Positions 28,683-32,918 of a stretch of DNA of 64,000 nucleotides are shown here, one piece after another. The translations under genes and the position numbers were made by a program. The stretch covers positions 3,447-67,446 of the forward strand of contig CAZLGG010000004.1 of the NCBI GenBank assembly GCA_964559135.1. The letters are read 5' to 3'. The DNA comes from an uncultured Planctomycetia bacterium (GTDB taxonomy: Bacteria; Planctomycetota; GCA-002687715; DRQF01). Under the pieces are notes generated by a model. It was not told the DNA's origin, did not search any database, and saw nothing but the letters and a program-made list of their open reading frames with translations. Numbering within the stretch: the stretch's first letter is position 1; each line of letters opens with the position of its first letter.

Positions 28683-29480
28683 AGCATGTCGCCTCATCAT
28701 CTTCTCCTCGCCCTCTGCATGGCACTCCTGTCCGCCCTCGGTTGCACGACGGCGCCGGACCTCCCTGAAAACGCCGACCCCATCCAGGCCATGTCCGTCC
28801 TGGGTGAACATGCGGACCATTTCGAGGGCGAGGATCCACGATGCGTCCTGGTCATCATGGATCGCCATTCGGCCCGCCCTGGTTTTCGACGGGTCCGCCT
28901 GCAGTTGCGCCGCATCCAGCGGGAACACCGGCTGCTCATCGAGAATTTCCTCCGGCATGGTTACCGGGTGTTGGGCTGCGAGTACCCCTTCGGCCCTCTC
29001 GAGGAGACCGAGGACACGGCTCGGGAGTACCGCATCGTTCGCACCTGGATGTATCCGAGGGACACCCTCGATGAATACGGCGTCTTTCAGCCCCTCCGCT
29101 TCCAGCTGATGTACCCGCAACTCGAGGTCTGGGGCGTCGAGGATCCGGATCTCCACGCGAAGGACCGCGAGTCTTGGGAGACCTACGTCACGGAAACCGC
29201 TCGGGCTCGACGCAAGGATCAGTCGGAGGCGGACCGGAGGGCTCATCTCGCCCGAGCGGATCGCGCCGCCCGGGAGCTGAATCGCAACGTGCGGGCTCGA
29301 GGCCGCGCGGCGGCTCTCAATCTGTTGGAAGCCCTGGATCGGCTGGGACGAAAACGAGGCATCCTGATCCTGGGCGGCGCCCACATTCCGGCGGCCCTCG
29401 AGGTCTTTCGTCGACGCGGCGTCAGCTACGACGTCTATCGCTCACACCACTACGACGAGCACACCGACGACGCACACTGA
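28683..29480 (+). CDS. hypothetical lipoprotein
   Basis: Lipoprotein signal MSPHHLLLALCMALLSALGC (lipobox LSALGC). 265 aa with no recognisable domain. Divergent from the GT4 gene; the ORF is open from 28605. Confidence 0.5.
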   Translation, partial: SMSPHHLLLALCMALLSALGCTTAPDLPENADPIQAMSVLGEHADHFEGEDPRCVLVIMDRHSARPGFRRVRLQLRRIQREHRLLIENFLRHGYRVLGCEYPFGPLEETEDTAREYRIVRTWMYPRDTLDEYGVFQPLRFQLMYPQLEVWGVEDPDLHAKDRESWETYVTETARARRKDQSEADRRAHLARADRAARELNRNVRARGRAAALNLLEALDRLGRKRGILILGGAHIPAALEVFRRRGVSYDVYRSHHYDEHTDDAH

Positions 29481-29664
29481 TCGAGAACACACCGACCGCG
29501 GCGCATGAACCTGACTCCCGGAACAGCGACGCCCCCGCTCTCCCGGGCCTGGGGAAGCCCACGCTTCCCGTCGGGCGCCCTTCCCTTGCAGGCCTCCACG
29601 GCGTGCCGGATCGGCTTGGTCCGCTCATGAAGACACGAAGTCCATAGCCGTTCTTTTCCCATGA

Positions 29665-30756
29665 GTGGCCAGGTCTCTTGGTGAGTCTCAAAATGTCCGT
29701 CACCTTCGCCGATCCCGTGACGTCTCGATGGCAGACGTGAGGTGTTTTCTCGAGACAAGGAAGGGAGACGTCGTCGTGCACGGAACTCATGATGGGGTGA
29801 CGCGGTTCGTTCTGAGTGATGCGGCGAGGATGAGGACCCTGCTCACGCATCTGCCCGATCCACCCCTCCCCTGGGTCAGCACCCTGGACACACTGGTGCA
29901 TTGGCCGGACGGCTTCGGCGAAGAATCGCCCGGGGCCCGACGAGCGGATATCGTCTTCGCCGGCCTCCCCGCGGCAGACGGGACGCCCCGTACCTGCCTC
30001 GTCTTCGAGAACCAGAGCATTCCCCTGTTGCACATGCCGATGCGCGCCCTCTGGTGCACCGTCCAAGTCTTGCGGGATTTCCGCGAGACCTTCGGACACG
30101 AAGCCACCCTGCCTGAGATCCATATCGTCGTGTTCTACCACGGAGAAAAGCCCTGGAGAGGCCCTCTCGCGTTGTACGTCGACGACGATGACGCACGTCG
30201 CTCCTCCATCAACTGCCGCTTCCATCTCATCGATCTGAATCGCATCAGTGACGAGGACATTCAGGAGCGTCTGGGGACGGGCCTGCTCACCCTGGGGGCC
30301 CTCGTTTTGAAACATGGCCGGCGCCCCGGCATGGGGGACAAGATTCCCGCCTGGGATCGTCACTTCGCCGCCGCCCTCGACGAAAACGGAGGCATGGACG
30401 GGGTCCGTGCCTGCATCGACTATCTTTTGGACGTTTCCGACGTGGGGCTGGAGGAGATTGAAGCCCTTCCCTTCGTACGGGACTCATGGGAGGTGCATAT
30501 CATGCTGAAGACGACGGGGCGAGAGCTCAGAGAAGAAGGTCGCCTCGTAGGCCGGGCCCAAGGGCTCGAGGAGGGCCGGGCCGAGGGCCGCGCGAAAGAG
30601 AGACGGGAGATGCTCCGCCTTCTCTTGCTCCGCCTGTTCGATGGCATTCCGGAGGATCTGGAGACCCGCATCGCAAAAGCATCCCCCGCGACCCTGACGC
30701 TGCTCATCGAAGCCGCCTTCGAGGTGGACGATCCGTCCGATCTCTTGAACGTTTGA
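29665..30756 (+). CDS. Rpn-family recombination-promoting nuclease / putative transposase (YhgA-like PD-(D/E)XK nuclease with C-terminal DUF4351)
   Basis: N-terminal HGTHDGVTRFVLSD..LLTHLP block matches the Rpn PHDxxFKxxL motif region. PD-(D/E)XK-like core (DIVFAG.., LVFENQS..). C-terminal LLLLRLFDGIPEDLETRIAKASPATLTLLIEAAFEVDDPSDLLNV is a typical DUF4351 tail. The start may instead be the Met at 29728. Confidence 0.7.
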   Translation: MARSLGESQNVRHLRRSRDVSMADVRCFLETRKGDVVVHGTHDGVTRFVLSDAARMRTLLTHLPDPPLPWVSTLDTLVHWPDGFGEESPGARRADIVFAGLPAADGTPRTCLVFENQSIPLLHMPMRALWCTVQVLRDFRETFGHEATLPEIHIVVFYHGEKPWRGPLALYVDDDDARRSSINCRFHLIDLNRISDEDIQERLGTGLLTLGALVLKHGRRPGMGDKIPAWDRHFAAALDENGGMDGVRACIDYLLDVSDVGLEEIEALPFVRDSWEVHIMLKTTGRELREEGRLVGRAQGLEEGRAEGRAKERREMLRLLLLRLFDGIPEDLETRIAKASPATLTLLIEAAFEVDDPSDLLNV

Positions 30757-30884
30757 CCTTCAGATCGGTGGTCGTGGGGCATCGAAGGGTTTCCCGGCAC
30801 GCGCGCTCAGGATTGGATGCCACGCCGCCCCCCCGCGGGACGAGGACGCCCCCGCTTCAGGAAGGAGCGAACGACCCGGCGGCT

Positions 30885-32918
30885 CTACGAGGAGTCGCGG
30901 ACCTCGGCGCGGAACTCCTCCTCGAGGGCGGCGACGAGCCGAGATTGACTCCGGTCCACCTCCTCGCTGGTGAGGGTGCGATCCATGGCGCGGTAGGTGA
31001 GCGAAAACGCCAGGCTTTTTTTGCCTGGAGCGATCTGCCGACCGCGGTATTCGTCGAAAAACTCGAGGGCCTCGAGGTCGGGAAGGTCCAAAGCCCGAAT
31101 CGCCGTCTCGATGCGCCCCCAAGGAAGTGAAGCGTCGAGAATGACGGCCAGGTCGCGCTTGACCGGAGGAAACTTGGACAAGGGCTCGTAGTGGGGATCG
31201 AGACGAGCAGACCGCTCCAGGAGGTCCAGGCGGAGCTCGAGGACCATCGGTCGCACCTTCAGCTCATGTCGATCGAGCAGCGCCTGAGCCGGAAAGCCCA
31301 CGAAACCGACAACGGTGCCGTCCCCGAGGCGCACCGCGGCGGCCCCGTCGGGAGCGAGCCAGTGCGCCGCCTTGTCATTGATTGGTGTGAATGCGACGCC
31401 TTCGATGCGCAGCGCTTCGACCAGCGCTTCAACGACTCCCCTCGCCGCACGGAAATCGCCGTCCAGAATCGCGCTGACGAGCGGAAGATGCCGAGGGATC
31501 TCCCCGGGCTTCTCATTCAGATATACGACGGTGCATTCCGCAAGCCGGACGTTCTGGTTGAATCGATCCTGATTCGTCTTCCGGATGGAGAGCAGAGAAG
31601 GGACGAGACTTTGACGCAGCGCATTCTCGTCCTTCCTCATCGCGTTTCGGATGAGGATCGGCTCCGTCGCCGCGAACAGGCACATCCTGGCCTCCTCCTC
31701 GGGCAGGAATGATGTCGTCAGGGACTCCAGGAATCCCGCCGCGATGAGGGTACGCTTGACCACGTCGCGAACCCGGGTGCTGTGAGGATCAAGCACCAAG
31801 GAGACCCGCATCGAGGTTTCCAGCGGGATGTCCTCCAAACCATGGACCCGAATCACTTCCTCCACCAGGTCGATCTCTCGGGTCAGGTCCTTGCGCCAAG
31901 TGGGAGGCCTTGCCGTCACGACCTGGGGAGGTTCGCCGGCGACCTCGATCCGCAGCGCCTCGAAGATCTCGCGGCACCGAGCATGGGGAATCTCGATGCC
32001 GGTGATGCGCTTCACCTGTTCCGGACGGAAACAGATGGTGGGGCGATCGTCCTCGAGGTGATTGACGTCGATGACTCCCTTGGCCCACCTACCGCCCGCC
32101 ACCTTCGCCATCAGGTGTGCGCATCGCCGGGATGCCCACTCCGTCTGGAAGCCGTCCACACCGCGCTCGAAGCGGAAGCTCGCATCCGAATGCAGATTCA
32201 AGCGGCGGGCCGTGGCGCGCACACCCAGGGGCTCGAAACAGGCCGTCTCCAGCAGGATGTCCGTGGTCGCGTCGCCGACTTCCGTGGCCAAGCCGCCCAT
32301 GACACCGGCGATGCCGACGGGGCCGTTCTCGTCCGCGATGACCAAATCCTCGGGGTTCAATTCATAGGTCTTGGCGTTGATCGCCGTCAACGTCTCCCCA
32401 GGTCGCGCCTTGCGGGCGATGAGGTGTGCCCCGTCAATCTTCGGGCGGTCGAAGGCATGGAAGGGCTGATTGGACTCGAACATGACGTAATTCGTCACGT
32501 CGACCACGTTGTTGACGGACCGCAGACCGATGGCCTCGATCCGCCGAACGAGCCAGTCGGGAGACGGCCCCACCCGGGCGCCGCGCAGCACACGGGCCGT
32601 GAAGCGCGGACAGGCCTGCGTGTCCTCGACCGTGACCGCAGCCAGGGTGTTCACGTCGGTGTCCTCCTCATCGAAGGACACATCGGGGAGCATGATCTCG
32701 AGGCCCGCGACCGCCGCCAACTCCCGCGCCAGACCGATGACGCCGTTGCAGTCGACGCGATTGGAGGTCACGGCGAATTCGATGACCCAGTCGTCATCTC
32801 CGGCCGGTTCCCACCACTCGACCTCGGTGCCGGACATGGTGAAAGCCCGGCACATCTCGACGACGTCGCCCGTATAGTCCGGGACCAACTCTCGAATCCA
32901 CTGATAGGTGGCCTTCAT
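30885..32918 (-). CDS. pheT: phenylalanine--tRNA ligase beta subunit (lacks the N-terminal tRNA-binding domain)
   Basis: 677 aa. B3/4 and B5 domains, FDRPKIDGAHLIARKA, RFERGVD, C-terminal FDAD-like anticodon-binding region. Located directly downstream of pheS. Confidence 0.9.
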   Translation of the reverse strand: MKATYQWIRELVPDYTGDVVEMCRAFTMSGTEVEWWEPAGDDDWVIEFAVTSNRVDCNGVIGLARELAAVAGLEIMLPDVSFDEEDTDVNTLAAVTVEDTQACPRFTARVLRGARVGPSPDWLVRRIEAIGLRSVNNVVDVTNYVMFESNQPFHAFDRPKIDGAHLIARKARPGETLTAINAKTYELNPEDLVIADENGPVGIAGVMGGLATEVGDATTDILLETACFEPLGVRATARRLNLHSDASFRFERGVDGFQTEWASRRCAHLMAKVAGGRWAKGVIDVNHLEDDRPTICFRPEQVKRITGIEIPHARCREIFEALRIEVAGEPPQVVTARPPTWRKDLTREIDLVEEVIRVHGLEDIPLETSMRVSLVLDPHSTRVRDVVKRTLIAAGFLESLTTSFLPEEEARMCLFAATEPILIRNAMRKDENALRQSLVPSLLSIRKTNQDRFNQNVRLAECTVVYLNEKPGEIPRHLPLVSAILDGDFRAARGVVEALVEALRIEGVAFTPINDKAAHWLAPDGAAAVRLGDGTVVGFVGFPAQALLDRHELKVRPMVLELRLDLLERSARLDPHYEPLSKFPPVKRDLAVILDASLPWGRIETAIRALDLPDLEALEFFDEYRGRQIAPGKKSLAFSLTYRAMDRTLTSEEVDRSQSRLVAALEEEFRAEVRDSS

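Follow-up and report, generated by a model that had tools for sequence, protein, structure and literature searches.

Genes of the Rpn family (YhgA-like) produce, in addition to a toxic full-length protein (RpnL), a small protein (RpnS) which is made from an internal translation start and which binds and inhibits RpnL (Zhong 2023, PMC10400941). In Escherichia coli RpnA the internal start is M244, and translation from it was abolished by the combined substitutions K240R, E241D and M244L; four-residue repeats, beginning 8-20 residues after the RpnS initiator methionine in the long first helix, set RpnL-RpnS specificity, and rpn genes are found as single-gene, non-autonomous insertions (Zhong 2023, PMC10400941). 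The RpnA residues important for function are D11, D63, E82, Q84 and R94, with D11, D63 and E82 shown to be required by mutagenesis (Kingston 2017, PMC5350276). Here we describe a locus on contig CAZLGG010000004.1 of an uncultured Planctomycetia bacterium, in a stretch of 64,000 nucleotides (referred to throughout as the window), where an open reading frame (ORF) at 29665..30756 on the + strand was analysed. The locus represents a divergent addition to the known family of RpnL toxins with intragenic RpnS antitoxins, and its central features are as follows.

29776..30756, + strand: rpnL, full-length Rpn (YhgA-like) PD-(D/E)XK nuclease, 326 amino acids, GTG start
30502..30756, + strand: rpnS, candidate intragenic antitoxin of 84 amino acids, in frame with rpnL, internal start M280
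30488..30495, + strand: internal Shine-Dalgarno (SD) sequence GGGAGGTG, within Trp-Glu-Val codons; its GGAGG core ends 8 nucleotides before ATG 30502
30532..30609, + strand: four-residue repeat tract (EEGR LVGR AQGL EEGR AEGR AKER RE), within a long helix common to RpnL and RpnS

As in E. coli RpnA, the N-terminal part of the protein is a PF04754 PD-(D/E)XK domain with equivalents of D11, D63, E82, Q84 and R94, and the junction with the C-terminal helical domain bears an in-frame ATG, no more than 2 residues from the position of M244, which is preceded by an SD embedded in the coding sequence. The motif that follows the start is alike in the two proteins (M-T-I-A-E-R-L-R-Q-E-G in RpnA and M-L-K-T-T-G-R-E-L-R-E-E-G in the window), and both are encoded by a single chromosomal gene between housekeeping genes, rpnA being located between feoC and bioH. 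Overall identity to RpnA is only approximately 19-20%, however, and the window protein differs in having Asn in place of His83, a GTG start for RpnL and a candidate RpnS of 84 amino acids (compared to 49 in RpnA), the 44-residue first helix of which carries approximately 6.5 four-residue repeats.

E. coli RpnC and the plasmid protein RpnP2 resemble the window protein in their four-residue repeats, which are rich in Glu, Gly, Lys and Arg (KGIE-like in RpnC, EEGR-like in the window) and begin approximately 10 residues past the internal Met, in a repeat number that varies between close alleles, and in having the strongest SD of the gene at the internal start; rpnC is, in addition, wedged between panD and panC. 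In contrast to RpnP2, which is plasmid-borne and protects against T-even phages, the window locus is neither on a plasmid nor in a defence island, and, unlike RpnC and RpnP2, it belongs to an uncultured host with related sequences from hydrothermal-vent metagenomes. Stand-alone DUF4351 (PF14261) genes, or RpnSs, such as E. coli YpaA are similar to the locus insofar as its C-terminal part weakly resembles DUF4351, but in the window the small protein would be made only from the internal start, and no second Rpn gene and no separate DUF4351 gene was found in the 64 kb.

Under the arrangement that we propose, the locus would be a chromosomal rpnLS module in which one gene gives rise to two in-frame products. 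RpnL would comprise an N-terminal PD-(D/E)XK DNA endonuclease domain, a 50-residue repeat helix and a small helical C-terminal domain, while RpnS (30502-30756, 84 amino acids), with independent initiation driven by the embedded GGGAGGTG, would comprise the repeat helix and the small helical domain. By analogy with RpnA, RpnB, RpnC and RpnP2, the repeat helix of RpnS would pair with its identical counterpart in RpnL, giving a heterotetramer which holds the nuclease inactive, and release of RpnS would leave a free, non-specific nuclease damaging DNA, possibly as an anti-phage response of the abortive-infection type. It is by homology that we infer translation from 30502, binding and inhibition of RpnL by RpnS, toxicity of RpnL and a role in phage defence. 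The locus adds to the family a divergent environmental toxin/intragenic-antitoxin gene, approximately 20% identical to E. coli RpnA, and leaves the understanding of how Rpn systems work unchanged.

Family membership and the catalytic core

Membership of the gene in the Rpn family (YhgA-like, COG5464/PF04754) is as good as certain. The protein was found to match PF04754 (Transposase_31/YhgA-like) at 47.7-48 bits (cutoff 21) over profile positions 3-170 of 203, a profile which was also matched by all 88 of the 88 aligned relatives, and the N-terminal domain was modelled by AlphaFold2 (AF2) with confidence as a PD-(D/E)XK-like fold. These results, together with the retention of the RpnA active-site residues, bear out the assignment to the Rpn/YhgA PD-(D/E)XK nucleases that had been made in a first-pass annotation of the DNA.

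An exhaustive HMMER search returned 1,442 relatives at E<=1e-3, although the nearest 50%-identity cluster representative was only 39% identical to the window protein; three homologues with approximately 60% identity were from hydrothermal-vent metagenomes and one NCBI assembly. A scan of a genome collection returned only distant relatives (25-30% identity), and PDB sequence searches with the full protein and with the family profile gave no meaningful match.

The window protein was aligned with 87 relatives and with E. coli RpnA and RpnC (from NC_000913.3), giving alignment A1 of 90 sequences. The window protein was observed to have the same residue as RpnA at D11, D63, E82, Q84 and R94. The catalytic D/D/E/Q set is intact, and the degeneration of the PD-(D/E)XK residues which the first-pass annotation had considered is not seen at these positions. 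The codons concerned are the following.

29791..30015, + strand: catalytic core codons, mapped by A1 columns: Asp 29791-29793 (RpnA D11), Asp 29947-29949 (D63) and Glu-Asn-Gln 30007-30015 (E82-H83-Q84)

The putative internal start and the candidate antitoxin

SD strength was calculated as the duplex energy (dG) against the anti-SD sequence and was compared over the 24 in-frame NTG codons of the ORF and, across both strands of the 64 kb, over the full set of 1,801 window ATGs. ATG 30502, which is M280 in ORF numbering and M243 in the numbering of the 326-residue protein, was found to have the best SD of the 24 codons (GGGAGGTG, dG -13.8 kcal/mol), stronger than that of the main start, and the second best of the 1,801 window ATGs (top 0.1%). 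The verified internal starts of E. coli rpnA (tied) and rpnC were ranked first by the same scan, and the SD of the junction start was ranked first or second in the distant relatives L007, L009, L015, L016 and L019, a ranking which leaves out four distant loci with unreliable junction mapping (L008, L011, L017 and L018).

In alignment A1, M280 sits 2 residues upstream of the column of the verified RpnA M244. This column is occupied by Met in 56 of the 90 sequences, and 21 more have a Met within positions -3..+1, giving a total of 77/90 where the background Met frequency is 1.9%; nine of the 11 relatives without a nearby Met have Val in the M244 column. The window protein represents a minority 'M-x-K-T' variant in which the Met is located two residues upstream of that column. 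At the DNA level, the sequence TCATGGGAGGT...ATC ATG CTG AA was identical in four homologous loci with approximately 60% amino-acid identity (L004, L005, L006 and L013), and RNA around the internal start was predicted to fold less stably than shuffled sequences (z +1.48).

The position of the start also corresponds to the architecture of the protein. Residues 238-287 form one continuous 50-residue helix in the AF2 model, with M243 (ORF M280) at its N-cap, and in a model of the 84-residue product alone (predicted local distance difference test score, pLDDT, 93) a long helix (residues 3-46) is followed by three short helices. The repeats lie between M280 and M316 and begin at residue 11 of the 84-residue product, which falls in the 8-20 range for RpnS; a start at 30610 would leave the repeats outside this range. 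Tract lengths were found to be 26 amino acids in the window protein and in the 39%-identical relative (P0006), 38 in P0003, 42 in P0002, 46 in P0004 and 50 in L013, all of which are 2 mod 4, and the distance between the anchor residues G255 and F288 was 1 mod 4 in 71 of 78 family members. Repeat number was also seen to vary between alleles, as the P0003 and L013 proteins are 94% identical and their only differences are indels of 8 and 4 amino acids within the tract. Tandem Repeats Finder detected no DNA-level tandem repeat in the window tract, which is shorter and more degenerate at the DNA level; in the homologues with longer tracts, L013 (2689-2832) and L004 (1230-1292), the repeats are visible as 12/24-nucleotide periodic DNA.

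An RpnS of 84 amino acids is likely, judging from these features of the sequence, to be made by initiation at ATG 30502. The concept of an antitoxin made within the gene from an in-frame start, as proposed in the first-pass annotation, is supported, while the start itself is moved 108 nucleotides upstream of the one proposed (30610). What matters in practice for annotation is that the antitoxin start would lie ahead of the repeat helix and not at the DUF4351 boundary. The diagnostics of the family which pinpoint the correct internal start, namely a junction start with a strong embedded SD, four-residue quantisation and single-gene presence/absence, can be read from sequence alone.

A number of results weigh against this reading. 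Conservation of the internal SD is partly dictated by Ser-Trp-Glu-Val residues, and as Trp-Glu-Val is kept at the amino-acid level in the close clade, the conservation of the SD DNA could reflect protein constraint; synonymous identity around the internal SD (5/6 codons compared to a 42% background) was suggestive without reaching significance. A scan of 29400-30950 revealed no sigma-70-like promoter, a result which says little for a lineage whose promoter type may differ. The 84-residue product gave a weak BLASTP match to RpnAS (E 0.19), the pairing of which agreed with the register of the multiple alignment, and Foldseek with the 84-residue model did not retrieve the RpnAS crystal structure (7TH0), an entry which was reached in a PDB search only when the E. 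coli peptide was the query. In addition, the window protein matched DUF4351 (PF14261) weakly, at 16.4-16.6 bits (cutoff 25) across ORF residues 307-361. The typical DUF4351 tail attributed to it is thus sub-threshold in the window protein itself, though the profile is matched at E<=0.01 by 60 of 88 relatives, and PF14261 is among the precomputed matches of the three closest homologues.

The amino-acid constraint on the internal SD bases, the non-significant synonymous conservation and the lack of a promoter-like site in the scanned interval would also suit a locus with no internal initiation, where only the full-length nuclease is made and the GGGAGG-ATG arrangement is a by-product of a conserved Trp-Glu-Val-x-Ile-Met. 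We consider this distinctly unlikely, since a start codon is kept at the domain junction across the family (the 77/90 noted above) among very different flanking residues, since the top-ranked SD belongs to the junction start both in distant relatives and in E. coli rpnA and rpnC, whose internal translation has been verified, and since only 2 of the 1,801 window ATGs attain a dG of -13.8.

Initiation further downstream was also considered, at the site to which the first-pass annotation had assigned the antitoxin.

30610..30612, + strand: earlier-proposed internal ATG (M316), rejected as the RpnS start on SD, helix, repeat and conservation evidence

The in-frame ATG (codon 316) and the purine-rich AAAGAGAGACGGGAG preceding it are present as described, and initiation here would give a DUF4351-only peptide of 48 amino acids. 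M316 is kept in the four closest homologues, the equivalent ATG in L004 has a reasonable SD (dG -9.0), and the sub-threshold DUF4351 match covers this part of the protein (ORF residues 307-361). As a ribosome-binding site, however, the purine-rich stretch was no better than chance: its dG of -4.9 ranked 7 of 24, and 31% of the 1,801 window ATGs were equal or better. The purine richness is explained by the Glu/Gly/Arg/Lys-rich codons of the repeats, and neither it nor the SD is conserved among the homologues (dG -3.5 to -9.0). Outside the close clade the Met is not conserved, the M316 column being hydrophobic (L 29, M 14 and A 10 of 90) with Leu in P0006, and instead of aligning with a known RpnS start, as the first-pass annotation had suggested could be checked, it matches helix 2 of RpnAS and not the initiator Met. 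M316, moreover, comes after the repeats and within the unbroken helix of residues 238-287, and the 48-residue product would lose the repeat helix, that is, the RpnS dimer interface and RpnL specificity. An antitoxin initiated at 30610 is thus very improbable, and the candidate was rejected in favour of ATG 30502.

The start of rpnL, toxin competence and the upstream leader

The two features immediately preceding the coding sequence of the full-length protein are given below.

29763..29767, + strand: SD (GGGAG) of rpnL, 8 nucleotides before GTG 29776; dG -8.4 kcal/mol
29683..29775, + strand: conserved non-coding leader, which aligns across four loci in different genomic contexts

The open frame 29665..30756 contains 363 codons counted from the first GTG. 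The 363-residue protein of the first-pass annotation corresponds to this maximal ORF, but the true rpnL start is probably GTG 29776 (326 amino acids) and not 29665. This start is favoured on account of its SD, the second best among the in-frame NTG codons (dG -8.4, compared to +0.7 for 29665 and -2.4 for ATG 29728), of an independent metagenome gene call (P0001) which begins at the same GTG, and of its alignment with the MVD(E/A)PHD starts of homologues. When four loci were aligned at the DNA level, window positions 29773-29778 were seen to read GTC-GTG, while the three homologous loci have ATG-GTG (Met-Val) at this point; as the ATG of the homologues is GTC here, the toxin frame probably begins at GTG.

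This loss of the ATG, a possible impairment of the toxin, is one of three features that count against a fully competent RpnL. The second is the replacement by Asn79 (30010-30012, 326-residue numbering) of the His (RpnA H83) between the catalytic Glu and Gln, a position which is His in 141 of 144 relatives, the closest ones included, and the third is the replacement by Cys94 (30055-30057, same numbering) of the equivalent of RpnA Y98, which is Tyr in 131 of 148 relatives. With these three changes the toxin may be attenuated.

Taken further, they would point to a decaying or attenuated module in which RpnL is weakened or inactive and the locus is retained chiefly as a remnant or as an antitoxin of the RpnS type. 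The repeat tract, which is the shortest among close relatives (tied with P0006), would also fit such a history. On the other side, the ORF shows no interruption and has a normal length, AF2 modelled the protein with confidence, and the residues required in RpnA by mutagenesis (D11, D63 and E82) are present, as are Q84 and R94. The substituted His occupies the X position of the PD-(D/E)XK motif, which in this superfamily is usually non-catalytic. Decay or attenuation of the module is, on balance, unlikely, and would in any case be compatible with an RpnL/RpnS locus initiating its antitoxin at 30502. The His-to-Asn change beside the catalytic Glu provides a natural variant with which a near-invariant residue could be probed.

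The leader upstream of rpnL is approximately 95 nucleotides in length and has counterparts in unrelated genomic contexts (L004 339-434, L013 1846-1938 and L006 5-97). It contains an inverted repeat at approximately 29718-29740 (TGACG-N13-CGTGA in the window, TGACG-N13-CGTCA in the homologues) and an anti-SD-like sequence, CCGTCACCTTC, the motif CCGTC(A/T)CCTTC being invariant across the loci and paired by RNAalifold with the rpnL SD region. As a single sequence, however, the leader was predicted to fold no more stably than shuffled sequences (z 0.06), and control through the anti-SD motif therefore remains speculation; the leader could serve as an operator or promoter element, or have no role.

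A more elaborate arrangement, in which the toxin start is kept nearly silent (by the GTG and by pairing of the leader with the SD), the antitoxin start is highly active and RpnL carries Asn for His, is improbable in our estimation. If true, it would amount to a cis-RNA layer of Rpn toxin control, or else to an Rpn that is attenuated by nature and maintained on account of its RpnS; the Rpn literature compared reports neither.

Genomic setting and single-gene presence/absence of rpn

The rpn gene was found to be polymorphic for presence and absence as a single gene.

29481..30884, strand not assigned: segment which syntenic relatives lack: rpn as a single-gene insertion, with a lipoprotein-like gene on one side and pheT on the other

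In the window, 1,404 nucleotides separate the lipoprotein-like gene from pheT, compared to 66 or 7 nucleotides in relatives without rpn. The same gene order around the site, with rpn missing, was observed in L020 (GCA_054013915.1), L021 and L022-L024, extending in L020 from Kelch to thrS; homology to L020 breaks off at 29460 and is found again from 30889. The exact insertion breakpoints are not definable, as no alignment is obtained between the intergenic sequences and the empty sites, and no GC anomaly was seen over the insert. The assembly with the empty site in L020 (JBPMHW010000069.1, 8793-8858) carries an rpn homologue, P0004, elsewhere (L005, JBPMHW010000043.1, 30-812), located next to leuS at a contig end and containing 11 repeat units. 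The gain or loss involves rpn by itself, with no defined inverted repeats or target duplications, in keeping with what has been published on rpn genes.

The lipoprotein-like gene (28686..29480, + strand) encodes a protein of 264 amino acids with a signal peptide and a lipobox-like LSALGC, the homologues of which are 79-84% identical to it. Conservation in synteny marks the gene as a core gene restricted to the lineage, and its retention in syntenic relatives without rpn means that rpn alone is accessory. Two statements of the first-pass annotation do not survive this comparison: the gene had been placed in a small accessory patch together with an orphan lipoprotein, and on the opposite strand to its neighbours, while the adjoining lipoprotein-like gene is on the same strand. 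The 264-residue protein had no Pfam, NCBIfam or PADLOC match, and only four homologue clusters were present in a collection of 5.8 billion proteins.

The neighbours on one side encode Lgt, an M14 peptidase, Wzy_C/TPR, Kelch, HisRS-like, C26 peptidase, radical SAM/SPASM and GT4 glycosyltransferase proteins, and those on the other side are pheT, pheS and the genes for initiation factor 3 (IF3), thrS and ATP synthase. Among the large ORFs scanned within approximately 15 kb there was no integrase, in agreement with the first-pass annotation, and there were no defence genes, the annotated neighbours being housekeeping genes; PADLOC v2.0.0 also gave no match. The lack of defence genes in this interval is a further point against the reading proposed above, though the rpn genes of E. 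coli K-12 likewise sit among such neighbours and a defence context is not defining for Rpn. Leader elements are known around thrS-infC-rpmI-rplT-pheST in some bacteria; a search of the window (1-64000), these surroundings included, revealed no Rfam family at the gathering score.

The names Transposase_31 (PF04754) and 'ISNCY family transposase', the latter from a weak NCBIfam match, suggest an insertion sequence (IS) transposase, an identity with which the presence/absence polymorphism and the imperfect direct repeat flanking rpn (see below) would also agree. The NCBIfam match, however, scored 33.5 bits, far under its cutoff of 583, no terminal inverted repeats were found at the ends of the insert, and only one rpn copy is present in the 64-kb window. 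Evidence for autonomous rpn transposition was, furthermore, lacking in an earlier study, and the fold is not known from any autonomous transposase (Zhong 2023, PMC10400941). That the gene encodes an IS transposase is barely credible, and a single-gene Rpn module is preferred.

Repeated sequences were also noted around the gene. An imperfect direct repeat of 21 nucleotides flanks rpn (29519-29539 and 30836-30856, 81% identity) with a 12-nucleotide exact core, GACGCCCCCGCT, and in L004 a 23-nucleotide direct repeat (296-318 and 1492-1514, 91% identity) includes a GC-rich palindrome, CGGCACGCGCGTGCCG. In the downstream flank, the stretch 30786-30870 is common to L004 and L013. The flanking direct repeats and the common flank may be traces of gene movement.

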